Below, piece after piece: positions 4,370 to 58,223 of a stretch of 64,000 nt of DNA. The stretch is taken from assembly GCA_010405405.1 (NCBI GenBank), contig MU004237.1, forward strand, positions 1,313,345 through 1,377,344. The letters run 5' to 3'. A program made the position numbers and the translations under genes. The notes under the pieces were generated by a model, which ran no database searches, was not told the origin of the DNA, and was given only the letters and a program-made list of their open reading frames with translations. Source of the stretch: Microthyrium microscopicum. Taxonomy: Eukaryota. The stretch's first letter is position 1. Each line of letters opens with the position of its first letter.

Positions 4370-4373
4370 CCCA

Positions 4374-5296: not shown

Positions 5297-6319
5297 ATGG
5301 AGAAACTTCCAGCTGCCCCCAAGTCCGAGCAAACTCCTCTTCTCGGCGACGATTATGTCACCATAGACATCCCGAACAAAGAAGACCACCACGGATCCAG
5401 CTTCAATATCTTCGGACAATCAGCGTAAGAATTGCCATCAGAATCTCTTCTAAATCAAGTAATAACTCATCGCAGCGGCTGGGGCGACTGGACAGCAGTC
5501 GACGACCGCGTTCGCGGAGGCAGTTCACAGGTAATTTCCACTCCCATCAACCACCATCCAGCCCCAAACTAACAGTCTCCTCAGTCCCATCTAACCCACT
5601 ACGCAGACAGCAAGTCCGTACTCTTCCACGGCCTTCTCGACATCACCACCCTCGGCGGCGCCGGTTTCGCCAGCCAAGTTTCACAGCGCTCCGACTGGGA
5701 CCTCAGCGGCTACGAAGCCATTCGGATTGGCATTCTGCCTGAGCAATCAGACAGTAAGTCCCATCCCTACCGCGGCTAGCAACAATCAAAAACCAGAGTA
5801 ACAAGCTGACAAAAATACACCGACAGACAAGACATACACCCTCGTCCTAAAAGACGCTCTTCCAGGCCGCCGACCAGACGGCCGACTGGAAGCAAGCACC
5901 TCCTGGGAATGTATGTTCAAAGCACCAAAGCCATCTCAAGGAAAGGTACAGTATGTGACACTTCGGCTCAAGGACTTTAAGGCTACATATCGTGGTCGCA
6001 AGATTGATGACCGCCCGCCGCTGAAAGTGGAGGCGATCAAACAGATTAGCTTGATGATGAGAAGGTACGTCCAAGGAGTTGGTTGAACGGCCATGCTGAA
6101 GAAATTATGAAAATGAAGCTAATGCGGAGGTACAGTAACTTTGGGAAGCAAGAGGGTCATTTTCGACTGGGTATTGCGTCCATGTCGGCTCATACGAAAG
6201 AAGATGTGCCAGCTGAAATGACAGTACTTGTAGAGGCAATCGTGCGGGTGGGACTAACTGCACTTGCCATGTGGATGATATGGTACTCCTGGCAGTCCTT
6301 GGTATTGCCTGAGGAATAA
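5297..6319 (+). CDS. CIA30/NDUFAF1-domain protein with C-terminal hydrophobic anchor (spliced, about 5 exons; mostly missed by the ORF track)
   Basis: Spliced reading gives WTAVDDRVRGGSSQSHL, LDITTLGGAGFASQ, WDLSGY, KTYTLVLKD, FKATYRGR, ISLMMRSNFGKQEGHF. Introns have GT donors, CTAAC-like branch sites and CAG acceptors. Confidence 0.85.
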
Positions 6320-7249
6320 GAAGGCTTCAAGAGAGCCAAGCTTTGTACCAAGCAATTGGAATAAGGAGAGTTCAGATGAAAAGGGAACTCAATTAATCCG
6401 TGGTGGCTATCATCCGGGAGCACTTCTACTCATCAACACCCACAATTAGACCAAAATAGAAAAGTTCAAAGATGTATGCAAACGATTGACCATGATATTG
6501 ATTATCCTAGCGTCTCTGTTTCAAAAAGACCAGCCAAACTCACTTAATCATTACAATACAAGGCATTGAAACAATTATGGTTCTGTCCATCATCAAAAGT
6601 TGAACCCCCAGTCCCAGCACCGACGCAAAATCCAAAAATGAAGCAAACCTTCAATAAATGACATACAAGAAGAGATGTTTTTCAATTAAGGAGTTCAAGG
6701 ACCCTATTCCTTTGCCAAATCCTTCGATCAGAAACAGTAAACGACGGACGGTCTGAAAATTCACACAAACTTTTTGTCGCATAAAATGGTACAACCACCC
6801 TCATCCGTTCGGTCTTGTTTGTAGTTGTATGTGGGCCCTGATTAGAATTCCACCACCTCCCGAGAAGGTCATTATCCGGGAGTTATTAAAGATTATATGA
6901 AATAAGAGGTGACAAAGGAGAAGAACGCCAGGTGTTGTAGACACCTATCCGTGAATAAGGCTCCAGAAGGAGAATGAAGTTGTGTAAGTTGAATAGAAAA
7001 GCAGTAGGCTACGAGAATGTGACACGTCAAGTCGTGAGAGGATATCTTCCCAGGTTCCGATAACGCCTTAAAGTCCCAAGAGTGTTGCTTTGCCAGCGCG
7101 AAAACGTGGCAGCATGGCTATGGAAGGGAAACAAAGTCCCAGATTATTCGTAGTATCGGGTGTTTCTGCGCTGATTATAGCAGCAATACATGAATCGTGT
7201 TCCAATGGTGGAGAGAAAAGTACAGCATAGATGGTAGCAATCTGACAGT

Positions 7250-9149
7250 CTATGGGAAGTGGCCAGTTGATGTGGGCGACGGTGTAGAGCCAGGGTCATT
7301 GGGAAGTCGTGGTGAATGCTGGAATCCAGGCGTATTGAAGCCAAACGTTTGCTGCGTGGGAGGCGCGGAGTAGGGCTGGGCCCATTGTATGTTGCTATAT
7401 GATGGCACGAGGATGACTTGCTGTGATGCTGGATACGTAATGTTGGGTATCATTGTCTGTGTTAAGGGTGCGGAAGGAGGTGGTGTCTGTGAGTCGAAAA
7501 GGTTTTGCGCAAATGCTGCCACAGCAGGGGATCGCTGAGCTGGAGTAGATGGCTTTTGTATCCGGCACGCGTTATTTTGAGACGACTTTATACGTCGTAG
7601 GGCCTGCTCTGGGGTTCCAAGGAAGGGTGATCTTGGTGAAAGTGGCATACCAGCTGTATAAGAGTTGTTTCGGCCCATTGGGTTTTTTGAGCCAAGACCA
7701 AGAGCTGCTGGAGCTGCTTTGCGACGTCTATCAGCAATAGAGGTCAGCGGGGTCCTTGATTTGCCGATGAAGAGGTTGTTCTCTGGTGGAGGCATTTCCA
7801 TCTTTTCCGAGTCTGCAAGATTGGGCAGTGACACTGAGCTAGTGTTATATTTCAAGTCATTCGACTGTTGTGGTGAAAGGAAGGAAGGATCCGAAATGGG
7901 TTGCACTGAAAAGTCCGTCGTGGTAACGGACGGCATGGTAGATCTGGTAGTCGATAGAACAGAAGCTGGCGAGCTATGATGATCAGCGAAACTAGCCATT
8001 GTTGGTGTGCTGGCAACTGAATACTCCAGGCTTCCAAAATCAGAGAAGCATGTCTCGGGCAAAGGTGGATGGTGATAATAATCACACTCAGATGCAGCGA
8101 TTGTTGGTTCAGTAGAAACGTATGTTGTTGTCGGGCGAGGAGCAACGTAAGATCCAAGTATATCAAACGAGTCGGCGAAAGGATGTGGTGACTGCGAGCC
8201 CGAAGATAGTGGTGGAGTATCGTTGCGTGGTTCTTGGGGGTATTGAGCAACATTAGCCAAGCTTTCAACCGAGAAGAGTGTATGATCGGAAGTGGACTCC
8301 ATTGCGCTCACAGGCATTTGAAGGTGATGCATAAAATGATCTTGTGCGCTGAATTGTGATGGCAGAGCATAACGTTGCATTGGTGGATAATTGGTGAAAT
8401 GAGGCAGGAACTCGCTCATATCCGGAGCAGACGTGGGCATCGAAGGGTCATGCTCTTGCTTTGGAGAAGCTTCGTGTGGCAGACTAGATTGAGTTGGGGT
8501 GCTTGAAGACTCGGAGACAGCAGGTTGAGAAGCAGAACCAGAATCGGAAGTGTTTGTGGCTTCTTCCAGAGGTATTTCATCGGTCGACGGGGGAGGTGGA
8601 TCACCTCTTTCGATAGCAGCTTGAGTTTTCTTCTCGTCTTGTCTTGATTTGGCGCGTCGATTTTGAAACCAGTTCTACTCGCAGGTTAGCAATTGAAGCA
8701 TCAATTATGTCAAAAACTTACGTTGATCTTTTCTACCGGCACAGCCATTCTCATGGCGATCTGTTTCTTGGTCGCTGTGGATGGCTTTCGCTCGGCTCTG
8801 AAGTGAGACTCGAGTAGAAACCATTGATCCCGAGTAAGCCTCTGCAGAATAGTTAGACACCAACGAAATCATAAGAAAACAACAGTGTATATACCTGGTT
8901 CGTCTGGGGATGCATGGCGCCCATTGGCAAAGTAGTCATATGAACTGGTATTTGACCATTTTCGTAGTATCCGAATGGCATATTTGGATCCTGGAAGTAG
9001 CCGGGATCGATAAACTGTTCAGGGAATTGCTTGGGAAATTGTTCGGGATAGTGTTCAGCATATTGGCCGATGAACTGCTCAGGGATGTCTCCATATCCCT
9101 CCTGACCCCAGTTTGACCCAATGGGAGGTCCGTCTCTCATTGAAGTCAT
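7250..9149 (-). CDS. Homeobox transcription factor, HbxA/Hbx1/Htf1-like (3 exons)
   Basis: Spliced homeodomain RLTRDQWFLLESHFRAERKPSTATKKQIAMRMAVPVEKIN/NWFQNRRAK. C-terminal motifs IADRRRKAAPAAL, LRRIKS, AQRSP and SAPPTQ resemble this orthogroup. Joins in frame to ORF 7250..8440. Confidence 0.88.
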
Positions 9150-12100
9150 GATTAAGAATTAGTGTAGAGGATTAGAAATAGCGAAGTGGTGACCTAAGGA
9201 GGTCAGATCTTGTGCAACGACTGTGTGATGTTGATGATAGTAGTGCCGATAGCGAATGACGGCAGCAAATATGTTGTAAAAACGAGCAGTATTGAAGAAG
9301 CGGATATTAGATTTTGGAAGGCAACATGGAGAAGCAGACTGGAACAAGGCGGCAAAGCACTCAAAGAGGAACGTGCCTGTAAGATGGTTGGGAAGGAGTT
9401 GGGTCAAAGCAGGCTGAAAAAGCGAAAGATATCAGCCAACTTGACGAAACCGGAGCGACCGTGATTTGGAGAGGGATAATGGAAAGATTTGAAGAAGAAG
9501 AAAGAGAAGAAGAGAAGAGGAAGGGATGGAAGATGATGCGTGAGAGACGGGAAGGATGGGAAGGATGGGGTGGAGGAGGGAAGGCTTCAAGGGGAAAAGA
9601 TCCGACGAACAAGAAGGCGTGGAGCAAGCAGAAAGTGGATCTCTGGGCCCTGCACACTCTCTGAGATTCTCACGGGGGGATGGAGCATCTTGACGGGCTG
9701 GACAGTGACTGGCAGACTCAACACTGGCGTGACTACTGGGTCCAACCGGGTCCAGTCTGGCAAAGGCACCAACTGGCAACTGGCAGCAGCTGGCAGTTGT
9801 TGAGAGCTGGGGCGGCGTAGCGGGTGGGCGGTGCTGGCGTCCAAACATCCATTCAGAGCCAGCGGAAGGGCGCGCGATGAGGCGGAGGATGGCAACACCT
9901 GCAAGACCTGCAAGACCTGTAACATCTTTGGTGCGCTTGCAGACTTGCAGACCACTCTCTACAACTTTTCAGAATCCTACATCATACCCTACACTGTCCC
10001 TCGCGGCTTGGACGTACCTGTGACCACAACTCTAGAATACTACGCTGCGCCTGTGGTATTGCGAACTTGTTGATGTGCAGCAAGATGCAGCTCACGCCTC
10101 TCCCTGCCTGTCCTGATCATGCTCCCTGTAATCTGCAATCGGTTGCGCACGACGGAGCAGCAGAAGCACTGCAAATTTGCTTCTCCGCCCTTGCCAGCTT
10201 CCTACTGCTCTACTCGACTTGAAAGTTTGGTACTCCTTCAGCCTTGAATGGCAGAAAGGCACCAGACAGCGCAAATTTTGAAAGAAATCTTCAAAGTACG
10301 GCTCTGGAGCCGACGATAACGATTAGAGTACGACCGAAACCCAGAACGAGCTGAGGTCTGAAGATTTATTCCGATCTCAGGATGGTCTGAGCATATTCAG
10401 CCTAAGGTCACACGAAACACTGAAGCTTCGTCAACATATTTAGTTGATCTTGATTCGGAAATTTCATAGAGCGTTGAGAAGCAATTCCAAAGTCTGTTCG
10501 TAGGCATGAGCGCATCACCGCGAAATTACAGTGATAGCACTTGTGCATTGGTGCTCATGCCGAGTCAAGACTGAAAGGTAGTTATTTCCCGCAAGCTCAG
10601 ATGGAGAGGCTCATGGACCGGACATTTGCAGATTGTCCACATCCTACAACGGCGACCAAATCCTAGAGTACCAGGTGCAAGGTACGATATCTTAGTACAG
10701 AGTACTAAGCCCATGATCGGGCAAACCACCATCGCCCCAGGAACTTTTTTCGGAGGATGTGAGCTTTGGAAGACCAATCAGTGTCGAGACAAATTCGGGC
10801 CGAATCACAACAGGCCACTGCAAGTCTTACCAAGGCTGTACTGGGTGATGTTCTAGTTTATATTCCTTAATCGGGCGACCTCTTTGGGCACGCCAGAGAG
10901 GCCGGCAGAGGCTCATCCAAACTGTTCATGTCATGGCGTTGGCCCCGGCGGGTGACCCAACGGTCCCAAACTGTCGCATTTGCCAATGTATGAGCTCTCT
11001 AAGGCTGGGACATTCTTGATAGATTCATGGAAATGTCGACAGGCATGCCATGAGGCATATTAGCCACGGGACTGGCTTCCTAGAAACCCAGGTCTCAAGG
11101 GAGAGCAAAGCAGCAAAACCAACAGGTGCGGTAGTGGCAAGGAAAAGCCAAGATAATCATCGCAGTTGTGCAGTGGGTGAGCTGCAGCAAGTCTAAATTT
11201 GGCGCTGGACAGCTGCAGACTGCGGGCAATGCAGGTCTTTGTCAGGGGTCAACATCAGCCGAACCTGTCAAAACTGCTTGTTCTACAACCTGACAGCTGA
11301 TCATCGTGTTGGTTCCAGTTGTTGATGATAAACTCTCTCAAGTACTGGTACGTTGTTCCCCTCCAACATCCACTGATAATGGTCGACTTGTGCGGCCCGC
11401 ATGCGCTGTGTTGCTGTAACTTTTCATTTGTCAACGCCGCGTCAAATCCCATCCCCAAAACTTGCACCAGCAGGCCCAATCTCGGCCCACAGTGACACCA
11501 GTAGTAACCTCTGGTCCTGAATGCGCAAGCTGTTCCCCAAACACTTCTTGCAACTCTCTCGCTCCCGGCGGCTACTTGCATGATGTCTGTACCCATCATA
11601 CCACTCTGCTCTGCTTCAACGTTCACCACAAAGCTCCTTGGACGCCGCCGTCAACGACGGTAGCACGAAGGCGGGAGTGCGACCTCTTTCTTGAATGAGC
11701 CAATGTCGAGGAGAAACGGGGTCTAGTGTAGTTCGCGTTGGTTACGCGCTTCTCTGGAGACTGGCCCGAACGACTCCGCGTATCCCCTCCAGCTTTCCGA
11801 AGTGTCCACCCCACTCGCTAGGCTTGTTCGTACCATCAGACCTTTGATGCTGTGATCTCGGCCCCTGCCTTCAAAAGAGCTGTACAGATTTAATGTTCCG
11901 CAAGCTTTTTGCGCAGAAGGAACAATCTGGTTCGCGTAAGAGCACAGAAAAGGGGTACCCAACACAAAGCCGGCTAATCAGGTGTCTTTGATGAGGAGGA
12001 TTTTTTGTCGCCGAAAAAGCATGATTGACAAAAACACGAGAGAACTTTCCTTGCCGGACCCTTTTTTTTTGTTATCCAGATTTCAGCGTCAAGAGAGTGG

Positions 12101-13396: not shown

Positions 13397-15272
13397 GGCG
13401 CTCCGCATGACAGCTTACCTTTGATTTTGGCTAGGGCTTTTTATTTAGGACGATGAAGCAGGTACCGAAGAGGCGTTTGCAATATAGCTTGGTAGGCGGA
13501 CGGTAACTGCTGCTGCGCTGAATGTAGTTCATGTACCGTAGTGTACTACTTTACTAAAGACTGGTACAGTGGCGTTTTTTGGTTTATTGTACGGAAGACT
13601 ACAGCCAAGATGACATGATGCCAAGAAGAGTTTTCTCGATACTTTTTGGCATTTGAATATTTTGAACTTGTAGATTTCCATGTTCTGAGGAACGGTTGAT
13701 CGCTGTTGCGTCGATCGCATCATGCCTATTGTCTCTGGACGACGATCGGTATAATCAACCAGTCGATAGTTTTAGAAGAGATATTATCAGATTATGCAAT
13801 GCTCCCTTGTTATATTATGTCTATTGCTTACGAGATCATCCGATTGTAGTCTTTGTTGTTGCGCGGTTGACTTGGCCAATATCTGAAGAGTCTAGAGATA
13901 TGAGGAATCGAGCTGAGTTGCGAGTATCGATATGCCAATTGTAAGAAAAGAAATCGAACTCTCAAGTGCCAATGTATGATGGACAACTTACATAATCGGA
14001 TTTCAATAGCTATTTGGACCCCAAAATGTGTTGTTTGAAAATGCTTCCAATAAAATCATGGCACACCAATATAAAAAGGAACCTGTGCCATCTGTGCCTA
14101 TAGCCTCAAAAGCTCGAGAAGCATAAGCAAGTCAGTCTATTTATTGAAACCAGAATTCACATCTGTTGGCTATTGTCGTCGAGTGCATCTGTTTGTTTAG
14201 AAGATAAAAGTCTTCTCCGCTTTACATATACTTGTTTTCTCGGGCGTCAACAATCAATTATCACTTTTTACAATGCTCTTGGGCTATTTTCCAGACCGAA
14301 TTGTCTGCCTACCTATCGAATTAAGCCGTAAATACACGATAAGTTCTGATGAGTGCTAGCTCAGTTGTTCTACGCATGGTCGCATCATTGCAGTATTGCT
14401 TTGACAGCTGTATACTTCTCGACTCTATGATGTCAGCTCGAATTGAGACGTCTGATCTGTTCCATAATCCGTCTAAAGGCATATCGCATACGACTTCCGG
14501 TATCCATTACTGGCTCAATCATTCCAAAGCAGGCTTGCAAACGTAATCAAGAACCCATTTCAAAACACTCGATTCCGTCAAGTTTTCGCAAAATGTAATG
14601 TTGTGCGAGAAATGCCGACAGCATACCACAACAGCCTAATATCGTCCATGGCTCAATTTAGTTCTGTGTACATATCTCGCAGAGTATTACAGTGCCTATA
14701 CCGTGTTCAAGTGCGATTATACGTCGTTTACTATGACTACGAGGTCGTGATGTTACAGTGACGTTTCGATATTTTTTTAGCATGGATTGTGAATTTTGAA
14801 CATGCAAACTTGCACTGCTTAGCGCTCTGCTACTGAAAATATATGATCTATAGAGTACAGTAGAATGGAAGATATGACCCAAGTAAATGATGCACTTATG
14901 CTCTGTATATGTTGTGCTTCCATTATCATTATACACAGTCTCTTCACACAGATTTTGCCTACTTGTTTAAACACGAACTTTCATATAATAACTGCAGACC
15001 CATATTTTGTGGGTAGAAATCTAAGCCAGAGCTCATGACTGTTCTTTTAGCATTGCCGAACTTTATATGGACTTGATACGTCGATCTTTGTGTGCTTCCC
15101 AGCAGATATGATGCTCATACATTAAACAGGTTGATCTATCATTCTATCCGAATACTCTCCTTTTACGTCCATCACACTAAGTACGGTCTCATTGAGCACA
15201 CAGCCCGCAAGAGCCTTTCCTGTCTACCAGTCTCCGTATATCAATTATCTTCCGAACACTCAGTTATCCCCA

Positions 15273-16181
15273 TCACCGCACCAACGCATCCCGAATCTCA
15301 ACCCTCGCCTTCCCATCCCGACATCCCAAAAACCGCACACTACTCAAATCCCTAACAACCCAATCCGCACCAGCACCAACAACCTCACCCACCGCATGAC
15401 TAGTCGCCAAACCCAGCACCTTACACCCCGCCGCCCGTCCAGCTCTGATACCCGCCGGCGCATCTTCCACCACCAACACTGACCCCTCTAAGCCCTGATC
15501 GTTCCCTGATCCTTCCATGCCGATCTTCTTTAGACCAAGTTGATAGCAAGAGGGATCGGGCTTCCCGTTCAACACATCCTGCGCACAAACTAAATGCTCC
15601 GGCCTAGTTAACCCCAACACTTCCAACCATCCACTGACCAACGCACGCGTGCCGGACGTGACGATGGCCCAGGGAGCGGAGGCTGATGAGAGGGTGGCGA
15701 GGAGGGTGCGGGCGCCCGGGATTTCGACGGCGGAGGAGGCGTAGCGTTTTGGAATTACTGCTTCTAGGCTGTTGACATCTAGTGGCTTGTCAGTGAACGG
15801 GAACTTGGTGATCAGGGAACAGAGAAAGGGGAGGTAACATACATTCCCAATTCGCCTTTGACGGATCATGTACAGCCAACACATCAATTGAGCGTCTACC
15901 ATGTGAAGTGGCGAGGATGACAGCGGGATCGATGTTGAGTTCGCTGGCGATTTGTGTCCAGTGTTGGATGATTGCTTCCGTAGAGTCTATTATGGTACCG
16001 TCCATGTCGAAAAGCTAAACATCATTACTATCAAAACACTGAATATAGGTAGCTTATGCAAGAAACATACGAAGCCAGAGAATTCTAGAATTTCAGGCGG
16101 AGCAGAAAAGTCTGCTTGTTCTAATTCTTGAGCATTATGTAGTCGGATTTGTTCTTCCTCGCTCTTGCTAGTCGTCGACAT
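15273..16181 (-). CDS. GPP1: HAD-family glycerol-3-phosphatase / 2-deoxyglucose-6-phosphatase-like (3 exons)
   Basis: Spliced LFDMDGTIIDS (motif I), SHGRRSID, WAIVTSGT, GKPDP, VVEDAPAGIRAGRAAG. Confidence 0.88.
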
Positions 16182-17227: not shown

Positions 17228-19389
17228 CTAAGCGGTGGCCGAAACAGTGGCAGATGCTGGAGGAGCAGTGCCAACATTCACAGCCTCAGGAACGACATCA
17301 CCAATGGACTTTGGAGCTTCCTCGGTCTTGGGCTCAGCCTCCTTAGTGGCCTCTGGGGCAGCTTCAGTTGGCTTGACATCCTCGGCCTTCTCATCGATCT
17401 TTGGGGCCTCCTCGACGGTCTTCTCGGTAGGCTTGACCTTCTTGGGTTCCTTGTGGCGGAAAGCCTTGCTAATGCTTCGACCAAGTCCCCCAAGAATCTT
17501 GTTCTCCTTGCCAGCAGGCTTAGCCTCCTTATCGGTGGTGGCAGCAGTCTCTTCGGCAGGAGTTTCGGTGGCAGCGGCAGGGGTCTCGGTGGTGGCAGCA
17601 ACAGGCTCCTCGACTGGCTTGGCAACCTCCTCGACAGGCTTCGTGTCTTCCTTGACGGCTTCTTCAGTCTTGGTCTCCTCAGATGGCTTCACCTCTTCCT
17701 TGAGATCCTTTGGCTTCTTGTCACCCTTGCGGAACTGACCACTGATGGTGTCGAAGAAAGAGCTTCGGCGTTTGTTGTCCTTTAGAGCTGTGGGTGCGCT
17801 GATTGTTGGCTCTTCAGCCTTGGTCTCGGCGCCGTTGGTAGCAGCAATGATGGCAGCTGGCTCAGCGGAAGTACCAGCAATCTCGGTGGATGGCTCCTCA
17901 ATCTTGGGAGGCTCAGCAGAGATTGGCTCAACAGCTGGGGCAGCTTCTTCGGCCTTGGTCTCGGTCTCAGAGGCGGCGATGGGAAGCTCGGGCTTCTTCT
18001 CGCTGGTTGGGCTACGAGCACCCTTGACGAAGTCAAAGAACTTGGAGCTACGACGAGTCTTGTTATCGGGCTTCTTGATCTCATCAACAGCCTTGGTCTC
18101 TTCAAGAGGCTTGGTCTCAGTGGCCTCAGCAGCAGCGATTGGCAGAGCTGGGGTCTCTGGAGCCTCAACGGCTTCAGTGGCTTCAGTGGCTGCAGTTGTT
18201 AGCATATAATTACATACATAGGCTTAATCAAATTGAACTTACCAGCTGGTTCGGTCACGGCTTCGGTGGTCTCTTCAGCCTTTGGTGTCTCAGGAGCAAC
18301 TTCAGTATCCTTCTTTCCCTGGAGACGGTCGAGGAACTTCTTGCTGCGAGATTGAGAGCGGTCCTTGATAGCGCGCTTCTTGTCAGTGGTTTCTGGGGCA
18401 CGAGCACGCTCATCAGTGCTCTTCTTTGGTGAAGAACCAGTAGCAGCTGCTGCAAGGCCACCTGCAACTACAGCTGGTTTGCCTGCATCGACGGTTAGAA
18501 TGGATGCGGACTAACGCGCCATGACGTTCCAGGAAAAGCAATTTTCAGGAAAATTGATCTGCTGGAGCTTTGACCTCGCGAAATAGTATGGATAGGGTTA
18601 ACATACTGAGCTTCTCAAGAGACTCTTTATAGCCTTCGGAGCCATGGACTTCCTCCTTCTTGGCCTTGGCCTCCTCGATCTTCTCCTTGATGGCGACGAG
18701 CCAGCTATCACGGGTAGCGGCAAGATCAGCAACGAGAGAGTGCTGCTTTCCATGAGCCTTGAAGCTGATTTCAGTTGGGCCAATTGGCTTCAAGTCATCA
18801 ACTTGGGCCTTGTACTCGTTAGCGGAAATTCCTATTCTCGATTCTAGGAATCTTACCAGATTGATAACACCCTTGGGGGTATCTTTGGTGTCGTGCTTAG
18901 AGTAGAAAAGCAGACCCTTTCCAGTTTGTCCAGCCCAAGCAATGTTCTCCTTGATATCAGTCTTGGTGGGCTTGATCAAATGCTGAAGCTTTTCGTGTGC
19001 AATGGCATCAGAGCCAAAGTAAAAGTGGAATTTATCCTTCAAGCCAATAAGAGACCTGTAGAGAAATCGATATTAGCACGTGTTTGCATTGATATTATCT
19101 TGAGCGTATAGGGCTGGACATACTTGATTGAGTTTCCACCAGCATAAGCTAGAGTTCCCTCATAGATTGGCTTGGCCTCCTCCTTGACTGGTTCAGCCTC
19201 TTTGACTTCTTCGGTGGGCTTTGCAGCCTCTTCGGTCTTGGCAGCTTCTTCAGTAGCAACAGCTGGTGTCTCAGTAGAGGGAGCGGCCTCAGTGGCAGCT
19301 GGAGTAGCCTCAGCGGCGGGTGTTGGCTCAACAGCTGGAACTGTTGGCTCGAGAAGAGGGACAACGGTAGGTTTCTGTTCTTCGGACAT
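17228..19389 (-). CDS. Meu6-like PH-domain protein with long Glu/Ala/Lys/Pro/Thr-rich disordered regions (about 5 exons)
   Basis: PH-like core (AWAGQTGKGLLFYSK, PKGVINL, RDSWLVAIK), KRRSSFF motifs, LGRSISKAFR, terminal IGDVVPEAVNVG. Canonical introns link ORFs 19039-19389, 18545-19042 and 17228-18205. Confidence 0.8.
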
Positions 19390-22300
19390 GGCGAAGGATG
19401 TGATAAACAGATAGGTCGAAAAAAGGGATTAGGAGAGAGTAAGGAAGGAATTAAAAAGTGATAAGGCTCGCGATTAGATGGCACGCGTGCTCGTGAAGGA
19501 GAGATGAGAATGGACAGGAACAAGGGAGATGGATGACCCGATGTGTAACTTTGATGAAGAAAGTTGATGAGAGAAAGCAAGAAGAAGAGGAGAAGCAGGA
19601 TTCGGGAAGCAAGATAAAGTGAATTAGTGGAAATGGGGAGCGTGGTGCACAGATCAGTCGTGGTCGCTAGAGCAGCAAGAGGCAAGAGCAGTCTGAGCAA
19701 AAGAGAAAGAGCGACATCAACCAAAGGCAAGAACCATCAGCGCCTCTGGAGTCAGCAACGACCAGCCCGGGGCCACTCCTTCCTAACAAGCCAATAGACG
19801 GGAAGGAACGTCCACCACAGGCCGTCCAGGCAAAGGTACGGAGCGCTGGCTGAACAAGGGGGAGCAAGAGCTATCTCCCTAATAATTACTCTCCCGGCTC
19901 AAATCACAAGGGTTTTACACGAATCCTCAGGACTTGAGGAGTTGAGATCACATCTTCGGTATTATTCATGTCGGCTACATTGAAGATGCATTGAAACTCC
20001 ATGAGTTTATTGACAGTTCATGCACCCCATCATGCAAACTCAGCATTGCTTCTTCGTCCTGACTCTGGCCACGGTAAAATGGTGATACGCGAAACTATTT
20101 TCTGCCTCGCACCAAAAAAACTCGCGACGAGAAGAGCAGCTTCAACGCCAGGGTCTTCAAGCGCGCCGAACGGGAACCCTCGTTGCCAGGGATCAGGGCT
20201 CGTCGCAACTTGATGCTACACCTTTTTAGGATACGCCAGGCTGAACGAAAGCCAATCAGGTCTATCCGCGCTGTGCTCATGGCCTCGCACGTGCCTCGTG
20301 TCGTGCCTTCCACTTGGGAAATTATCATGAGCTTTTCTTGTTCCATCCAGCAATTACCGTCGAGTTGCTCCTTCTTCAACGCCTGTTTGGTAGATATCAA
20401 GATGCAATCTGCTCTTCTTTCCACATTTCCTCTCATCTTCTTACACTCATCTCTTCTGGCGCCTGCATAATATCACTCTTTCGCTTGTTGACACTTCATG
20501 CAGATTGACATCAAAATGGCCAAAATTATGCCACAACCCGCTGTAGCAAATCTCCGACCACGCTATCATTTGCCAACCTGCCGCCCCTACTATTTAGTAC
20601 TAGTTCTTCCTACGGCATTTAAACAATGCCCATCAAACTACAGTTCTATTACCCACAAACACTACAAATACTAAACATCTTCAGGTAGATAGATTAACAC
20701 ACATCCTATTCCTATGTTCTATATTGCTATTACCGCACACCCACAATATCTATTCATATAGAAAACAACCAGTCCCCTCACATTAGCTCTATCGGCCATC
20801 TAATTATTCTTGCAATCAATCCTGGCTGCTCCACCTGTGCCGATCTCTGCAGCTCGAGCCGTTTGAGGCCTGCAACTCAAACTCAACCTCAGCCATTTTC
20901 CATTCAATCGTTGCACAAATTGATAATGCAGGCCCTCCCCTCCATCAAAACCCTGCCTCGCATTGATGATAAGACTGCCTTGGCCATTCTTCAACAACAT
21001 TTGGTTCTTTTGTCAACAACTCTAAACATACCCAGCACCTCGATCTAGCCTCATCCGCCTACAAAGATACCTGGAAGTCTCCCTAGCGCCATTTGACAGA
21101 GTGTGTAGATCTCGCCCAGCGAATTTTCATACACATCATCTGCCCTAGCAAAGAAAATATGGGCCGCTTTCAGTCAAAGGCATCTCAAGTCCCGTTTGGC
21201 CAAGACTATACAAAGGCTCATGATTGCGGAATAGACTTGCTTTCAGCCTGTTAGTTGACTGGTTTGATGCAGGCCAAATGCACGTCGCCATGATCTTGTC
21301 CAACAACAGCTGCAGTTGTGGTTACATGGGCCTGCTTTAACCAATCACTTGCGTGAAACATGCCGATTGTCCATGAACCTGTGACACTCCCCATCAGGCC
21401 CGTTTTCGAATTGTTAATGCTTCGCCACTTTTTTATACAAGAGAAGAATGAACATGCGAGATATTGACCGGTTTGAACCTTCCAAGTTGATATCGACACA
21501 GTACTGACCAAAGACATGAACATTACTACTCCATGAAACAATGTCAGATCAAAACGTTTGATTCTGAAGTGACAGATGACAGGAAACGAAAATGTTTTGA
21601 TAAGAGTAACAAATCAAACTAACGATCTCAAATCCGTCCATCCCACCATCAAATCCAACTTCAATCCACGATCTCCAAAGCATCCCACATGACCAACCTG
21701 TGTATCAGGAACATAAAAAACCCACCCCAACATGAATCGTCCCCCAAAAGTCAAAACTGATGTGCAAATAGTGCAATACGCAACCCCAATCCCGCAAGAT
21801 ACCGCCAGCTTGCGTAGTAGATACATGCAACCCACTGCACTGGAATGTAATGTCGTCGCATGACACACACCATCTCATGGATAACTGCAGCGGATCCTCG
21901 TCCAGACAACCATCCTGATATCTCGGCCATTAACCAAACATCTAGTGTTCACAAATCGCACACCTGCACACCGACACTGCTCAATCCTGGATCGATCTAG
22001 ATTATCTAGCCTGATGAAGCTGGAAATCTGATTATCTGAGAAGCCTTCTGGCCAGTGGTTTGTAGCTCGCTCAGCTCACCTTGCTAAAGAGACCAGCTTC
22101 CCTACCTACCACCCTGCCTGTAGGTAACCCAGCAATCTCCAGGTAACTCACCGTACATCTAACGTCATATACCTCCCATTTGCCGCTATCTACGAATCCA
22201 CATACCACACTGTTATCCATCGCACAAGACATACCATCCATATCGTGAATTCCAAGCAGTAGATTTCCTTGAGCACGTGAGCAACAGATATCCAGAATTC

Positions 22301-23314
22301 AGGGGTTGTTGTCCATGTTTGCACAACGCCCATTTCTTTCGTTGTCGCGTCAGGCGCATCTAATTTGCCGCTACGTAAACGCCACTGAAATGACTTTTTT
22401 CCATTTTCTTTTTCGTTCTGCGCCTGCCGCCTGAGGCTCTGAACGCCAGAAACTTTTACCGCTTTGACAGCTGTGTGTAGCGGGACTAGCTGGGACTAGT
22501 GGTAGTGGTAATGTTCACTGTTGGTTCCCTGCGGTGAGATCGGATCGTGATGCTCCTTTCAAGATTAGCTTTTGTTTTATGGAGTCAGGGTCCAGGAGGG
22601 AGTTTGGATTCTTTCTGTACAGATCTGAATTGGAAGTTGGGAGGCTCAGAGAGCTTCTGTTTTTCGATCGCAATTGCAAAAATCTGCCGTTCAGGAGAGT
22701 TTGACTTTGGAAGTGCAATTGTGATAATGAAGCACTCTATTTTAATGCTGTTTGGGTCTCACTCAAGGACGATATTGAGTAAGATTCATACCTACTGCGT
22801 CCGGTGTACAAAGTCTGAGCGTTTCTCAAGCGTCTCCAAATTCCTTCTGTCCTCTCGTTCTGTATCGATGAAATGAACGAATCGATATCTACGAATGCAG
22901 ATCAATCTGAGCATTCTTGTCCACATCAGCAACTGTCTTGATGAGCCTAGAACTCCTTCTCATCTTAGCAAGTTGAAAAAGTTGGAAATAAAAAACAAAG
23001 AATCTCTCCGCTTCAAACAGCTGCGAGGGTTCCTGCATTTAAGGAGAGGCTCAAGTTGGTAGCGAAACGGCGCGCCAAGATGAGATAAGCGCGCGTCCTA
23101 ATCTAAATGCCACTGACGAGTGGCACTTGAAACCTCATGCCTTCAAGAAATTTATATTCACTGGTACCACTCAATAGATGAATAGCGATACTTGGGTCTT
23201 GGCTGTTCCCTCTTGAGCATTGGATATATCTTGTTCTGAGACCTGGAATATCCTCCCTGCTGTGCTCATCTCCTTGCTCAGTCTCAACCTATATCCCCTA
23301 AGCAGACCTTCACA

Positions 23315-25369: not shown

Positions 25370-26991
<1,622 letters not shown>

Positions 26992-34866: not shown

Positions 34867-35089
34867 TCAAGATCACCAGGCAGTGTTTAATGAATGGATA
34901 GGAGTGGGAAGAGTATCGCCAATAGAAGGCTACACGAAAACAGTTAGTTAAGAGCATCAATTCAAATGACATGGCGCGCGTCCTGGTCCAGAGTCATTTC
35001 TAAATACCCAGTTCTATGCCTATTCTTTCATTTACCGAAAGCTACGATTCCTGTAAGACAAACTGAAATAACATTGACTCTTTTTACGT

Positions 35090-39768: not shown

Positions 39769-40576
39769 CTTGGGAGCAGAGCGACCAGTGACGTTATCAG
39801 TATGAGCAGGCTGGGAAGTTTTGGTAGCAGTATTGGCCCAGTGACGATTCCTTGATGCTGTCGTGCCGGCTGATAACATTACAGACATGATGAAAATATA
39901 TTTTCAGGCGCTGACGTGCTCCGATGACGGGAACCACCGAACCAAACTATTTATGTCTCCCCCAAAAGCATATGAGTAATTTCTACCTGAACCCTTGTGG
40001 GTGGTTGGCGAGTCTATGGTGGACCACTGTTGCGACTTGGATGCCTGATATATGGCGCTTGGAACTACTATGAATGTCACGAACTTCTTCTAGTGCCTTG
40101 AATAAGGAGTAGAGACTGTTGGAAGTGAGATCTTTCCAACTAGCTGGAAAACTGATCGTTGTATCTTTTTAGACATCCCATTACATGTTTCGACCTCGTA
40201 CAAACGACCTTGAGAGGGCCAAAATTCACGTTCGGTGGCGAGGCTGTTCATACATACTAAAAATTATGCCAAGACATATAAGTTGTATAGAGCGGCTTGT
40301 AGCTGCTCGGCATAGAATATCTGGGGCATTTATAGAGATAATCTGGTACAGTGACGTTAGCAAGATCTTGCATATATCGATAAAGTGAAAAGACCACGAA
40401 CCTTTCGACCCACATGAAGCAGTGAGAGAAACCAAATCCTAGATCAAATACGCAAAATTGAAGAAACGGTTTCAAATCTTCCCTACTCTGAAACTACTAT
40501 AAATAATCTCAGAAAAGCTCAGTGACGTACTTTTACCGGCCAGTGACCTGTTCAATCTTTGATATATACCCATCTC

Positions 40577-44576: not shown

Positions 44577-45358
44577 GTTGCAAGTTTGAAATGCGTTTTG
44601 CGCGCACCCGGTGGAGATGTGGTGAGAGAGATATGCCGGAAAAGTTGAGGACAGTAGAGTGTTGTAGTCTTTGGAGGGATATGCGCGCAGGTGACTTTCG
44701 ACGTAGACTTGCAGGGTGACGCTAGACAGTGAAGAGTAACCCGATATGCTGGTAGCTGGGAAGGAGGGGAGATGTGTTGCTGCTATGTGCTGTGTAATGT
44801 GTAGGTTCAAACGTTGTCTGCCTGAACTGGATGGTCAATACGGAACTACGTAGGGAGCGTTGCCGCTGAGGAACAGAACTGGCGGCTACGCGACTAAGAA
44901 TAACCGCGGGGAGTAGCTTGGCTGATTATGGTTAAATTAGGTCATCAATTCTAGCTCGGTGATTGGCTGCATTCAAAATCCCCCACATCGTCTCTTTTCG
45001 CTTCTCTCTCTTCCCACTTGGAGTTAGAATCATCAATCAAGACACAAATACATACACACCCTCCCATTGCTTCTTTTGTTCCTGACAATTATTTGTCCCA
45101 CAATACCAGCAACGGGAACTTACCTCTCTCTTTCAGCCTTGTGAAAGTGCAATTGCCCAAGATTGCATCTGCAGGAAAGGGCGCATCCAAGCTTCAAGAG
45201 GCCAGCATCGTGACTTCTACCACGTTCCATTAAATTCCCAGCCTCGCCAACGTCATTAAACTACAAAACTTTTCCATTTCCCATACCACTCCCCTATCAA
45301 ACTCGCTCCGCCCACGAGTCTTTCCCGCTACACATAACCAACATTAACACAACTCATC

Positions 45359-46120
45359 ATGGCCAGCTCTGTCCATCCTGAAGGTTAGTTGGTTGCCTGC
45401 TGCGAGAGCTGCGCAAATCTCAAAATTTCCATATCTCGAAATGCTAATAACAACCAGTTCTCTGGGCCCAGCGCTCATCCACCTCCGACCCCGAGAAGAA
45501 CTACGTCTACTTGACAATTACCGCTCCCGATGTTCCCAAGTCAGACCTTAAACTCGATATCGAGGGCGCCAAGCTCAGCTTCTCTGGAAAATCCAAGACC
45601 AAAGGTCTCACCTATGCTATCGATATCGAATTCTTTGACGAAGTCGATCCCGCCGAGAGCAAAATCAACCATACCGATAAGAACATCGAAATGGTACTAA
45701 GGAAGAAGGATCTCAAGGAGGAATTCTGGCCACGACTTTTGAAGGATAAGGCCAAGGTTCACTGGCTCAAAACTGATTTCGACAAGGTCCGTCCCTTTTG
45801 ATTATTTATATATAATGTTTCCCATACTAACATCTATCTAGTGGGTTGATGAGGATGAACAAGATCCCGAGCAAGACGAAGATTACATGCAAAAGGCTGG
45901 TGGTCTTGGCGGTGACGGCGGATTTGAAGGAATAGACTTCAGCAAATTCGGCGCCGGTCCAGGCGGTCCAGGAGGAATGCCCGGCATGGAAGGCATGGAA
46001 GGCCTAGAAGGCATGGGAGACGAGGAAGATGAGGACGACGACGATGATGATGAGATGCCCGCACTGGAGGGTGAGGAAACCGCCGGCAAGGCGCATCCCG
46101 GCATCGAAGAGGTTGAATAA
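45359..46120 (+). CDS. SBA1: Hsp90 co-chaperone p23 (Sba1/Wos2), 3 exons
   Basis: MASSVHPE/VLWAQRS, EFWPRLLK, WLKTDFDK/WVDEDEQ, GM-rich and acidic tail. Confidence 0.93.
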
Positions 46121-46344: not shown

Positions 46345-47244
46345 TCAACGGTTCTGGTTGAAATTCATGTTATACCCGCCCGTATTCTCATCCTTGACCA
46401 TATTGAAGTTATCCGTCGACAACCCAAATGGCTTCAACAGTCCATTGCCCAGCTGCTTCAATTTGCCCATCATCTCGCCCATCTCCTTCTGCTTCGCCTC
46501 GTCCAGTTTCTGCGGCAAACTTCGCAGCGCCGTCTGTACTGTCTTGCGATCCGCTGGCGCCAGTATCGAATAGCCATCCAGCGTCTTGTAATCTACAATC
46601 CCACCATCAGCAAACACATTACCAGAAGTTGAGAACAACAGACCTTCCTGCGCACCCGCCAACGCCGCCCACCCACCCTCCTCCGTCCGCGCCTTGGCCC
46701 TTCGAAGCAACAACTTCATGCGTATCCTCAGCACATCTTGCTCAGTGTACTTCATATCCGCCATCTTAGCTTCCTGCTCATCACTAACCTCCACTACCCT
46801 CTCTTCCCCATTGCCACCTTTACCACCCTCCCCTCTCCCCTTACCATCCCCATCTTTCCCTCCCCCCTCTTTACCACCGAGCCCGTATTCCACCTCATAG
46901 TCCCCCAACCGTTCCAATCCCTTATCAGCCTCCTCCACCGCCCTCTTCCACTCGCCCATACGTACCAGACACGCTGCCATATTACTCCTCAGCACGGCAT
47001 GTTCGTAGTGTGTATACGAAGGTAGTTCTGCTAGCGAGCGTTCGTAGGTGTTTAGGGCGGCGTCGTAGTCGCTTATGGTGAAGAGGGAGTTTGCTTGGGC
47101 TTTTAGGAGGGTTGAGGATGCGAGCATGGTGGTTTCGGTTGAGGGTGGGAAGCGTTCGATTGCGGGTGGGAGATTTGGCGGTGGTGGCGGTGGTGGGGGA
47201 GAAGGTGGCGAGGAAGGATCTTTGGGGTCTGTTGGGGTAGACAT
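46345..47244 (-). CDS. TTC1-like tetratricopeptide repeat protein
   Basis: TPR motifs; C-terminal EMMGKLKQLGNGLLKPFGLSTDNFNMVKDENTGGYNMNF typical of TTC1; probable in-frame intron at about 46593-46643. Confidence 0.88.
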   Translation of the reverse strand: MSTPTDPKDPSSPPSPPPPPPPPNLPPAIERFPPSTETTMLASSTLLKAQANSLFTISDYDAALNTYERSLAELPSYTHYEHAVLRSNMAACLVRMGEWKRAVEEADKGLERLGDYEVEYGLGGKEGGGKDGDGKGRGEGGKGGNGEERVVEVSDEQEAKMADMKYTEQDVLRIRMKLLLRRAKARTEEGGWAALAGAQEGLLFSTSGNVFADGGIVDYKTLDGYSILAPADRKTVQTALRSLPQKLDEAKQKEMGEMMGKLKQLGNGLLKPFGLSTDNFNMVKDENTGGYNMNFNQNR

Positions 47245-47685
47245 TTTATATTGTCTATGTTTTGGTGTGGTTTATGTCGCGGGTCTGGAGAGGGGGGATT
47301 GCTGCTTGATGTTGGGAGAGGTGTGGTCAGGTTTTGGTGGTGGGGAGAGGTTTGGAGATGTTGTTGTAGAGTACTCTATGGAAGGGCATAAAATATTCTA
47401 GAGTAGCATTTGATCGCAGCAATTTATATAGGGATATTATTATTCTTTTCGCCTCAAAAAGATAATTCTCTGACTTATTATCTATTGGTTTGCAAAAGAA
47501 TCATTGATATTTAAACTGTTGAAAAAACTTTTATTGCATTACTACCTCCAGATGCAGTATTTACTGCATGTAACGCTTGGGTATTTAACTAAGATTAAAC
47601 AGTAGCCGAGAAGGACTTTCTCGCTTCTCCAGAGATCCTCACCTTTATGTTCTAGTTTGATGTAGTACATGTGTATCCTATCCTA

Positions 47686-55143: not shown

Positions 55144-56622
55144 GAAAGCAGACAAGAACCATTCGCGGGTTGAACGATATACGGCGATTGCTATGATCGT
55201 CTTCGAGATCTGTGATCCACTCGTCCCCAATCCAGACTCAATGCGAGGCATAGCTTATGCACTTCAGAGGTCTGTAGAAGTTTGCCCCTTGTTCATGCAG
55301 ACATTTCTGTGACCAATGGTACCTCCGCCTGCCAACCCATGAGAGCTCATGTTCTTTCCACCTAGACTCAGAACTATATAATGGACACAACAGCGCTGAC
55401 TTCGGGAGAGACTCGGAGACCTCTCGTCAGAAGGCTACAGCATGCTCGTGGAAATCATGATTCAAGGCATGGATTTCCAACACGGTCAAATGGTGGAAGA
55501 TGTGAGAAGCTTTTCCATCAGCAGACACTTCTCACGTAGTTTCAGGATGTACACTCAACTTGACCTTTCGTCAATTCGGAGTTCTCGTTCTACCAGCTGT
55601 TTTTCTCAGCCATGTCATTGTTACTGGCTTGCTATACATCTTCATTAATATACGCATCACGGCTCTTAAGGACATCAATACAATGGACATAATTCCCATG
55701 TATAGTCAATGCCTAAGGCTTTCACAATGCCACACATTGTATAAAATAGAACTACTCAATTTGCAAAGTTCAACTAAGGACATCATCAATACCAAGAAGA
55801 TAACATCTCTTCATACAAGTACTTTGCCCTAGGAGCTCGGACTGGATTCAACTGGTTCAGCCTGAATGCGGAAGAAGGGTCCAGCTTTTGGAGACCGTTA
55901 TGGCAGCATATACATCCCACAACTGTGTCGGCGAGACACTTGATCAATCCAGTCTGAACATTGCTAAAACAACGAGAGACTCTTATCATTTTTCATTCCC
56001 CTTTCAATGTTATTGTTTGCTCCTGGACAATTCTAGATTCCTAGCATCCTCATGTTATGACCACGCGAATCGACATTTCTGTTATGATACTTGGAAAGAG
56101 CTATATTTCGGGTTGCATTTAAGGTTTCCCTTGCAAGCATTTGCCAACACGAACAGCCGCATCTTGGCATAAAACTCGCCGCATCTTTAAGGGGTTCTAT
56201 TCAATGTCATTGGTTCGTAACACCACAAATCGTTCTGTCCTTGAACAAGGCTGTCTTGTGTTCGGGTATTTAACGCCACACCGTAAATTTCTCCTTGATG
56301 CCAAGCTATAGACTTTGTACTTTTAGCCAATGGCTCAGCAGGCGTGACTGTAATTACATATGTACTGTATAAACAATGCGAAATACGAGTGTATGGGTTG
56401 TCTTTGACCGGACGGCACGACGGTATTGTAGAGAATATGGGGCTGATATTGAAATCCTATGACAGCCACCAAGGGATCGTGGTACAGACTGAGCTTGCCA
56501 CCAGAAAGCCGCTCTCTCGTGCCGTGAAAGGTAAGAGGAATATGACTGTATAAATCATGTTGTGCTCCCTGCGTGGTGCGCAGGTTTTAGCAGTCAATCG
56601 CTAACAGTCATTCGTTTTTGGT

Positions 56623-58223
56623 ATGAAGTCATTCGTTTTTCTAGCCGTCGCAGCTGGTGAGTCTCCCATACATCATAGAGATATCTGCATACTACCGTGA
56701 TGACTGACATGACTTGATAGGTGTCGCTATCGCATCTCCAGCTGCGCAGACCAACAAGTGCAAAAGTTGGTGTGACAACACTGATTATCCCGAGCAATGT
56801 GTTTCTGAGTCAAACAACCTCGCTGGGCCCTGTTGTGAATGTGGCCCATATAAAACTATCACAAGCATGAAGTTATGCGATGGGCTATGTGCCGACACGA
56901 GCTCAGATGTGAAAAACTGTGGCTCTTGCGATAACTGGGTTTGTCTGACTGTTTGAGAAGACTTCAAGAAGGCTTGCTGATGCAGACCAGTGTAATTCGA
57001 ATCAGGTTTGCAGCAGTGGCAAATGCGTCAAGAAGACCGCTTCCTCTGCGAAACCTTCAAGTACATCTAGTGTCATCAAATTTGCGTCTGCTTCCTCGCC
57101 AGCAACTTTGTCAACTTCTTTGGCCTCATCTAAGCCGTTGAGCTCGGCACTTCCATCGTCAGTTAAAGCTTCGAGCTCAGTGATGATTAGCAAATCGTCT
57201 TCTGTGTCGCTGCAAGTATCGTCGTCCGCGAAACTATCAACTTCGACAAAATCTTCCACGATCTCGAGCCAGCTTCCCTCTTCAACAAAGCCAACGAGCT
57301 CTTCAGCAACCAGCAAGTCGTCAGCCGTACCCACGAGCTCCTCGCTGTCACCAGCACAATCCTCAAGCTCCACCAGCTCCACCAACTCCAAGTCATCTTC
57401 ATCTACCACCGTATCCTCATCCTCCCCCCAACCAACATCCATATGCACCCCAGCTCCCGCTCCCCCCGTAACCTTCACCCAAGTTGGCAGCGGCGGCCAA
57501 GGATGTAACTACAACGACGCATCCCGCTACCGACAATTCAGCGGAGTTCTCAAATCAATCCAAACCCTCAACGACATCTGCGCCGCCGACCGCATATGCA
57601 GAGGCTGGGCCGAAACAGCCTACCTAGGAACATCCAACGGCAACGTGCCCATGCACACCGACGTCTGGCTATTCCTCGGCCCCTACAACGCATCTGAGTT
57701 CATCTGCTCCGACGACCCTGCCCCAGATCCATACATGTCGACTTCGGAGTACTTTATCGACGACTACACACCGCCGACGGTGTATGATGATAACGGCAGT
57801 TTTGAAACGGGGTGTTTTGCGCATTGGACTGATAGCTCGTATTCTGTATCGAACGGGAGTGTGGTTGCGTGTAATAAAGGTTTGTCGGGAGATTGTGTTG
57901 ATGGGAATAATTACTATGAGATCAAGGGCGATGGGTCGAGTTTTGTGAATAATCAGTTTGCGTGGCCGGCTACTGTTAGTTATTTGCCGGCGATTCCGGA
58001 CTCGGGGAGCTATAAGTTTTCGTTCTGGGTAAAGGGGACAAGTGGGAAGTTCCAGGTTGCATATGGAGCTGCTACTACGTTCGTGACTGGTATGGCTACG
58101 GGGCAGTGGGTGAAGAAGGAGATTACTTGGACGGGGTATCCAGGGAAGCCGATTTATTTTGAGTTTAATGCGCCGGGTGTTTTTGACTGGAAGGTGGATG
58201 GGTTGACGATCGTGAAGGTTTAG
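56623..58223 (+). CDS. Secreted protein: Cys-rich (Stig1-like) N-domain, Ser/Thr stalk, C-terminal CBM-like beta-sandwich (3 exons)
   Basis: Signal peptide MKSFVFLAVAAGVAIA; introns 56657-56720 and 56939-56990; LCDGLCADTSSDVKNCGSCDNW/CNSNQVCSSGKC; NGSFETG...YKFSFWVKG...WKVDGLTIVKV. Confidence 0.8.

Follow-up and report, generated by a model that had tools for sequence, protein, structure and literature searches.

What makes one DNA strand turn again and again from C/A-rich to G/T-rich sequence inside protein-coding genes? This question is raised by a stretch of 64,000 nucleotides from Microthyrium microscopicum (assembly GCA_010405405.1, contig MU004237.1, forward-strand positions 1,313,345–1,377,344; hereafter the window, whose first letter is position 1). 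A first-pass annotation, made from the letters alone, had listed nine such switch points and ascribed them to a bidirectional, strand-asymmetric process at fixed sites, independent of gene orientation. Genes lie close together in this fungal DNA and have short introns of the GT..AG type, as confirmed by RNA contigs; these were unstranded spliced contigs from the same strain, whose ends are not transcript ends and whose depth does not rank genes. Pfam matches verified the gene names used here, namely SIR2, HMGL-like with HCS_D2 (homocitrate synthase, HCS), HAD, TPR (Acl4-like and TTC1-like), MFS_1, UNC45-central, Snf7, CS, AA_permease, Peptidase_M43 and CIA30. Our analyses revealed that the switches exist, that they follow genes, and that the coding strand of an affected gene passes from a 5′ block rich in A and C to a 3′ block rich in G and T, one block mirroring the other in composition.

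The skew contrast, defined as the difference in GC skew between two 300-nt arms, peaked at 15647 (0.79), 24522 (0.86), 25581 (0.67), 28472 (0.86), 40973 (0.95), 46999 (1.30) and 57746 (0.69). Over a few hundred bases at the annotated centres, sliding GC skew climbed from values of about −0.3 to −0.6 to values between +0.4 and +0.68. Ten peaks of at least 0.6 were observed, compared with a mean of 3.8 in 100 permutations of 100-bp blocks, a control that is conservative because it keeps local skew; the largest permuted contrast was 0.95. A second background consisted of 72 other fungal loci (527 kb; 483,846 positions) fetched around HCS genes from metagenomes. Five of the nine annotated centres exceeded every background position, and those at 25620 and 57785 lay near the 99.9th percentile, whereas those at 5950 (contrast 0.51) and 38900 (0.50) reached only the vicinity of the 99th. 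Seven of the nine switches are therefore far beyond both chance and the fungal background, and two are weak.

The switches are carried mainly by silent sites. Synonymous codons were shuffled within each open reading frame (ORF) 1000 times, using 19 ORF pieces from 18 genes. Nine pieces, corresponding to eight genes (GPP/HAD, Sir2, HCS, Acl4, MFS, She4, TTC1 and the secreted protein), gave p ≤ 0.002 and three gave p = 0.025–0.031, whereas the remaining seven (homeobox exon, PH-gene exon, g31, g34, g35, Snf7 and g50) were not significant. A significant opposite step near the 5′ start was found in two pieces, the metalloprotease and the secreted protein; in the latter it marks the transition from neutral to A/C-rich sequence at the 5′ start. 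A step model was preferred over a linear gradient in all eight pieces compared (difference in Akaike information criterion 3.7–42.3), with a 10–90% junction width of 0–403 nt (0–130 nt in five pieces, ca. 400 nt in Sir2). In Sir2, the third codon positions in 40-codon windows changed from A12 C27 G0 T1 to A5 C0 G24 T11, and third-position letter strings generally showed long A/C runs followed by long G/T runs. Thus, third positions in Sir2 turn from C/A to G/T as the first-pass annotation stated, and neither of the outcomes that it had named as refuting was observed: silent-site skew withstood codon shuffling, and the change is a sharp switch and not a uniform ramp along the transcript. The AT part of the change was small over the whole sequence (dTA −0.01 to +0.32) and strong at silent sites only.

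Pooling the silent sites of seven genes, with 45 nt dropped on either side of each junction, made the symmetry of the two blocks explicit. Fourfold sites had the composition A.24 C.59 G.07 T.11 in the 5′ block (n = 482) and A.13 C.10 G.49 T.28 in the 3′ block (n = 487), compared with A.28 C.22 G.20 T.29 in seven control pieces (n = 1398). Twofold pyrimidine sites were 78% C in the 5′ block, 79% T in the 3′ block and 50/50 in the controls; twofold purine sites were 79% A, 76% G and 51/49, respectively. In silent-site composition, the two blocks therefore complement each other exactly, which suggests a single strand-asymmetric process operating with the strands swapped. The twofold-site ratios imply an approximately 13-fold strand asymmetry in the transition ratio.

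The same bias was found in non-coding DNA. Among 13 introns taken from RNA joints, four in 5′ blocks contained C14–23 versus G2–5, and the single intron in a 3′ zone contained C3 G11 T16 A9; of the other eight, five had C approximately equal to G and three leaned to C (13/6, 9/6 and 11/3). Leaders were C-rich on the coding strand (GC skew of −0.75 in HCS, −0.71 in TTC1 and −0.59 in Acl4) and neutral again at −151 to −300 (HCS −0.10, TTC1 0.00), and 3′ flanks were G-rich in GPP (+0.42), Sir2 (+0.39) and She4 (+0.31). The spill into non-coding flanks reported earlier was thus recovered in the Sir2 3′ flank, the TTC1 5′ leader and introns, although in 3′ untranslated regions (UTRs) it was far from general, as discussed below. 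Because introns and some UTRs share the bias, translation, protein sequence and mature mRNA are not its drivers, in line with the earlier statement that protein sequence does not drive it, and the data support a bias acting at the level of DNA or pre-mRNA.

The positions of the switches follow gene structure closely. All eight gene-region contrast peaks lay in coding sequence, as did the weaker switches in CIA30 (5950) and MFS (38900), and two further peaks (883 and 59584) lay at blocks resembling the product of repeat-induced point mutation (RIP). All seven reversals (5156, 19712, 24996, 27125, 40393, 44970 and 47441) fell outside coding sequence, in intergenic DNA, in leaders or just beyond a stop codon. 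Given a coding fraction of 0.55–0.65, the chance of all junctions being coding is approximately 0.003–0.014 and that of all reversals being non-coding approximately 0.0006–0.004. Blocks, called with a four-state hidden Markov model (HMM; M = A/C-rich, K = G/T-rich), were 186–986 nt long with a GC content of 0.52–0.58, and they ended 8–143 nt past start or stop codons. The HMM found six direct A/C-to-G/T junctions in 64 kb. Each affected gene carried one domain of 1.0–1.4 kb, which in short genes (TTC1, Acl4, the secreted protein and GPP) extended over the entire gene and its leader, and in long ones was limited to the 3′ end (the terminal 1.3 kb of Sir2 and 1.0 kb of She4). The junctions lay inside conserved domains (SIR2, TPR) and off domain borders, and a conserved domain was present in seven of eight patterned genes versus two of seven unpatterned genes (Fisher p = 0.04).

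These observations bear on the original reading of the pattern. Its independence of gene orientation is true, but it follows automatically from symmetry: a gene that runs from A/C to G/T reads as C/A to G/T on the + strand in either orientation because the reverse complement reads alike. The flanks across one intergenic gap were often unequal, which speaks against a gene-blind bidirectional process. The complementary arms suggest a strand-asymmetric process, as proposed, and the step fits support a sharp switch. Its placement at fixed sites that are independent of genes is not supported, since the junctions are all coding, the reversals are all non-coding, the edges lie at gene ends and there is one domain per gene.

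The strongest case is the TTC1-like TPR gene (46375–47387, − strand), with a contrast of 1.30, an A/C block at 46996–47387 (a 143-nt leader and 82 codons), a G/T block at 46375–46995 and a step at 47002 of approximately zero width (shuffle p = 0.001). The Acl4-like TPR gene (27427–28794, − strand) has a 5′ A/C block at 28413–28794, including a leader of ca. 139 nt, and a 3′ G/T block at 27427–28412, with the step midpoint at 28444 and a width of ca. 129 nt (p = 0.001). In the She4/UNC45-like gene, only the last ca. 1 kb is affected (40569–41558, − strand; A/C block 41004–41558, G/T block 40569–41003; step at 41006, width ca. 0, p = 0.001), and its first 1.6 kb is only mildly C-biased. Sir2 (23687–24995, + strand) comprises a 5′ A/C block at 23687–24512 and a 3′ G/T block at 24513–24995, which extends 123 nt beyond the stop codon at 24872 (p = 0.001); the junction lies within the SIR2 Pfam domain. 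An RNA contig from another data set spans 23575–24988 of this gene with 0 differences, so the window sequence is confirmed by an independent RNA assembly. The near-coincidence of the Sir2 block end (24995) with the contig end (24988) is a weak hint, as contigs do not show transcript ends.

The HAD/GPP gene (15136–15834, − strand) has its 3′ G/T block at 15136–15648 (C/A on the + strand) and its 5′ A/C block at 15649–15834; the HAD domain is present, the fraction of third positions in the K class (G or T; K3) reaches 0.98 over the last 50 codons, and the shuffle gave p = 0.001. In the secreted-protein-like gene (57226–58269, + strand), the A/C block at 57226–57778 is followed by a G/T block at 57779–58269, and the K3 fraction rises from 0.12 to 0.86 with the midpoint at 57745 (shuffle z = 11.1). 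HCS (25370–27133, − strand) is C-rich on its coding strand from the leader (26790–27133) to about 25650 and G/T-ending over its last ca. 75 codons (25370–25600), with a step midpoint at 25622 (p = 0.001 and 0.002); its intron at 25778–25831 contains C23 G2. The MFS transporter exon (38306–39113, − strand) shows a weaker switch near 38960 (contrast 0.50; step from 0.04 to 0.68, p = 0.001), and the introns of this gene follow the blocks (39114–39164, C20 G2; 38257–38304, C3 G11). In the CIA30 gene (5538–6400, + strand; domain at 5802–6083), a 5′ A/C block at 5538–5875 (HMM) precedes a weak switch at ca. 5880–6050. Beyond the range covered by the first-pass annotation, a membrane-protein-like ORF (1672–2679, + strand) has a 5′ A/C block at 1672–2293 (HMM) and then a weak G/T tail, its third-position GC skew moving from −0.76 to +0.78 (p = 0.031). 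The only long direct juxtaposition in the opposite sense, G/T to C/A at 44970, lies in a divergent promoter (44610–45378; HMM blocks 44610–44969 K and 44970–45378 M), where the leaders of Snf7 (−) and the CS-domain gene (+) abut, each A/C-rich in its own sense.

A gene polarity of the same sign is known from fungi. McLean and Tirosh (2011; BMC Genomics 12:638, PMC3315797) described a coding strand that, averaged over genes, favours C at the 5′ end and G at the 3′ end, in most of 64 fungi. In their account, this skew reaches UTRs, fourfold sites and amino-acid usage, and no cause is established; the average is a gradual ramp and the AT skew is flat along genes, with A going with G, an observation used there against deamination. 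The window agrees with that description in its 5′-C/3′-G coding strand and in the involvement of leaders, some 3′ UTRs, fourfold sites and amino-acid usage. It differs in forming a step instead of ramps that rise gradually at either gene end around an intermediate plateau (junctions 0–130 nt wide in five of eight pieces), in an AT skew that switches as well, T going with G and A with C, and in a far greater strength, near-absolute at silent sites within a domain of 1.0–1.4 kb. The feature is therefore an extreme, step-like, keto/amino variant of the known fungal gene polarity. A full-text literature search for later studies of the mechanism behind the 2011 polarity turned up none.

The extreme form is rare but not unique. 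A contrast of at least 0.8 was reached at four sites in the window and in none of the 72 fungal loci (maximum 0.78), and HMM-skewed bases made up 20% of the window (6 forward and 2 reverse junctions) versus 6% of the loci (12 forward and 11 reverse); blocks alternating inside genes also occur in a few of these loci, among them the one labelled L018. In L018, A/C and G/T blocks alternate at 3647–7010 across HCS and an adjoining 561-codon ORF. The metagenome search with HCS yielded 80 fungal loci, the two closest of which (93% and 89% protein identity) are ca. 1.1 kb long and end before the 3′ block. Orthologous HCS genes mostly share a mild trend, in which C-rich third positions turn G-ward in the last bins. 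As a separate observation, the third-position GC skew of HCS in distant fungi has a common course, with a G-ward bump at residues 121–240, a C-ward dip and a G-ward tail. For the 5′-C/3′-G polarity described in fungi in 2011, the near-saturated effect seen here makes a faint trend testable gene by gene; sharp, mappable junctions and mirror-image halves are well suited to strand-specific R-loop, nascent-RNA, chromatin and mutation data.

Other skews share part of the signature. A C-over-G skew at plant and fungal transcription start sites (Fujimori et al. 2005; Tatarinova et al. 2003) is cited in PMC3315797. In the window, too, C prevails over G on the coding strand of leaders and early gene sequence. 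This start-site skew reportedly forms a peak of only ca. 100–200 bp. The window blocks, unlike it, extend through 0.4–0.9 kb of coding sequence before the opposite block takes over. For mammals, Green and co-workers are said to have described in 2003 a transcription-associated mutational asymmetry with an excess of G and T on the non-template strand. The sign of the 3′ block in the window is the same as in this asymmetry and in the G-skew at human gene 3′ ends, which has been associated with both R-loops and termination (Ginno et al. 2013; PMC3787257). Unlike the mammalian skews, which amount to a few percent and are positive at both gene ends, the skew in the window is approximately tenfold larger and, at the 5′ end, negative. 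Single-strand deamination in vertebrate mitochondrial DNA turns C into T and A into G on one of the two strands. The window carries the same chemical signature with a similar strength at fourfold sites, and its ca. 13-fold asymmetry is of mitochondrial strength. The sign of the junctions, C/A and then G/T, is that of a bacterial replication origin. However, mitochondrial and bacterial skews arise from replication and extend over kilobases to megabases, whereas the pattern in the window follows single nuclear genes.

Because the blocks are tied to genes, mostly genes with conserved domains, a cause linked to transcription is favoured, and because both transitions go in the same direction on one strand, a deamination-type change is the simplest chemistry. 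We therefore consider it moderately probable that a strand-asymmetric, deamination-type transition bias linked to transcription affected the template strand within the 5′ block and the coding strand within the 3′ block. Transcription would be the driver and deamination the chemistry, and R-loops together with antisense RNA may be the means. Under this explanation, whichever strand is single-stranded would undergo C-to-T and A-to-G changes. In a more specific proposal, R-loops of sense RNA over the 3′ block would displace the coding strand, and R-loops of antisense RNA over the 5′ block would displace the template strand. An exposed strand that is deaminated would become more G/T-rich and hence more prone to R-loops, so each state could reinforce itself. 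As a G-rich displaced strand favours R-loops, such reinforcement would explain the purity of the blocks and the sharp junction. In plants, antisense R-loops around transcription start sites and sense R-loops in gene bodies have been described (PMC8327920). More tentatively, and with clearly less confidence, we suggest that a self-reinforcing, bistable antisense/sense R-loop switch could divide expressed genes into two mirror-image mutational domains, with the domain wall lying in coding sequence.

Several observations weigh against the transcription-linked explanation. In long genes, a strong A/C block lies far from the transcription start (ca. 1.6 kb into She4 and ca. 0.5 kb into Sir2), so a simple rule of distance from the promoter fails. 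The classical mammalian asymmetry leaves the coding strand G/T-rich throughout, and the 5′ block therefore needs an extra assumption. Fourfold GC is 0.59–0.66 in both blocks versus 0.42 in the controls, which deamination alone does not explain. The spill into 3′ UTRs is clear in only three of seven strongly patterned genes and weak in TTC1, Acl4 and HCS. In the highly conserved HCS, replacements relative to orthologues showed no directional bias (36 and 4 sites). Finally, none of the deaminase dinucleotide contexts checked in the blocks (CpG, CpA and TpC) stood out, so RIP, CpG decay and a motif-specific deaminase are not the source. RIP converts C to T at CpA and leaves AT-rich, TpA-rich DNA. 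The blocks were also examined directly for RIP, which was rejected as their cause, given a GC content of 0.52–0.58 and CpA and TpG rho values of 1.09 and 1.16, like neutral DNA.

Meiotic breaks offer another route to single-stranded DNA. If breaks formed in the nucleosome-free gaps at both gene ends and the resected 3′ tails (a few hundred nt to 1 kb) were deaminated, DNA downstream of a break would become A/C-rich and DNA upstream G/T-rich, GC-biased conversion would raise GC, and tracts meeting in a short gene would produce a sharp junction. Deamination of tails enriches the top strand in G/T to the left of a break and in A/C to its right. Reasoning from 5′-to-3′ resection, breaks at gene ends thus have the right polarity, whereas the resection tracts around a central break proposed in the first-pass annotation have the opposite one. 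The gene-end version also predicts the same pattern for either gene orientation and mirror-image arms, and it accommodates the raised fourfold GC and the block lengths, which are like yeast resection lengths. However, the flanks of a single intergenic gap are often unequal: blocks are absent from the flank of the TTC1 promoter gap towards AAP, from the flank of the Acl4 promoter gap towards g29, and from the DNA to the left of 15136 and 57226 and to the right of 58270. Moreover, the She4 block at 41004–41558 and the Sir2 block from 23687 adjoin no intergenic gap, although DNA adjacent to a break is always resected, and the skew ends near gene ends, short of any central break point. We consider this route unlikely. 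Placing the cause at fixed, gene-independent sites within genes, be they replication origins, hotspots of central breaks repaired by error-prone synthesis or internal divergent promoters, is less likely still, indeed very unlikely, even though the sign is that of an origin, the arms are symmetric, the centre is sharp, and the purest sequence in She4 and Sir2 lies beside the junction and not at the gene ends. There would have to be six to eight such sites in ca. 58 kb, each in a different gene, none of them in intergenic DNA or spanning two genes, with unequal arms (186–986 nt) whose outer edges match gene ends. Replication starts fit the sign, but origins at this density, each confined to a single gene and bounded by its ends, are not credible, and the extent is not that of a replicon; an RNA contig also crosses the Sir2 junction with no sign of an internal start.

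Selection could act instead of mutation. Composition of the DNA or pre-mRNA might be selected in a compact genome such that the 5′ part is freed of G-rich, R-loop-prone RNA and the 3′ part is G-rich for pausing or termination; in a variant, limiting cytidine triphosphate would pace the polymerase (McLean and Tirosh 2011; PMC3315797, which puts forward an adaptive model). Such selection would account for the constant order of blocks along the transcript, for their stopping near gene ends and, at the pre-mRNA level, for biased introns, and the link of 3′ G-skew to R-loops and termination in human genes (PMC3787257) is in keeping with it. Yet it would have to act on nearly every silent site over 1 kb and override amino-acid choice, neither C-avoidance nor G-richness predicts a mirror symmetry that extends from G and C to A and T, and the pattern is missing from 7 of 18 genes and most other fungal loci. 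On balance, we think that selection of this kind is improbable. Fold-back of the mRNA, in which the 5′ A/C arm pairs with the 3′ G/U arm, had been named in the first-pass annotation as the alternative to a mutational process; a variant holds that transcripts are kept free of local structure. Arm composition alone permits very stable duplexes (ca. −130 to −180 kcal/mol for arms of 260–280 nt). In five genes, however, the real arms paired no better than internally shuffled ones (z −1.29 to +0.61; 4–29 of 40 shuffles as low or lower), inverted matches were only short and out of register (14–35 nt), and introns, which are absent from mature mRNA, are biased too. A long, in-register inverted repeat or hairpin between the arms was not found by an inverted-repeat search or in the duplex energies of these five genes. 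The arms are thus complementary by composition only, and fold-back is highly improbable as a cause.

Two further candidates were tried and rejected. Conversion of gene 3′ ends by cDNA fits the intronless domains of Sir2, She4, TTC1 and Acl4, but introns in the HCS and MFS blocks share the bias. Overlapping antisense genes were considered as well, and none of nine antisense or alternative-frame ORFs in the blocks matched Pfam.

The bias reaches into proteins. From the 5′ to the 3′ block, P, T and S fall, whereas G, E and V rise 2.3–2.6-fold. In TTC1, the implied (G−C) at codon positions 1 and 2 was −0.58 versus −0.21 in 22 orthologues over the first 80 residues (p = 0.0011) and +0.36 versus +0.12 over the remaining residues (p = 3.8e-5), and the shifts in both parts exceeded the range of the orthologues. 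Long ORFs, of up to 445 codons, run antisense to the blocks at 40563–41900 (+), 24479–25066 (−), 57669–58238 (−) and 47069–47401 (+). These ORFs are by-products of composition and a trap for gene callers. A bias that changes protein sequence and creates spurious antisense ORFs is relevant to gene calling, to models of codon usage and to the phylogenetics of such fungi.

Some features of the window stand apart from the two-block genes. AT-rich blocks with ca. 20–26% GC occur at 663–1180 and 59876–64000, and also at 4421–4907. The two larger ones have TpA/ApT values of 1.61 and 1.68 and (CpA+TpG)/(ApC+GpT) values of 0.29 and 0.13; as these are classical RIP indices, the genome has or had active RIP. 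The homeobox-gene exon at 7207–8599 is HMM-skewed, but its bias sits at first and second codon positions, the protein being rich in Ser, Thr and Pro, and not at third positions, and its skew differs in cause from the two-block pattern. On the + strand, purine-rich (A+G) tracts at 9162–9892 and 19265–19647 lie just upstream of the − strand homeobox and PH-domain genes and are probably their leaders, C/T-rich on the − strand. Adjoining paralogues at 30846–31898 and 33634–34866 (+; 32% identity, E = 4e-34) are acidic, belong to no Pfam family and are without the two-block bias.

Around She4, an RNA contig splices out 64 nt at 41880–41943 (GT..AG, − strand) within an unbroken 875-codon ORF, and the removal would shift the frame; this represents either an unproductive or regulatory splice or a gene model that goes beyond one ORF. 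A further spliced intron (40343–40401, −) lies between the She4 stop and MFS start codons, probably in the MFS 5′ leader, and the She4 and MFS transcripts may nearly abut. Two sequencing runs labelled as another organism contained low-depth (2–5) fragments identical to the window at 23001–43000, beside unrelated high-depth contigs, indicating either that this fungus was a minor member of the sample or that there was carry-over.

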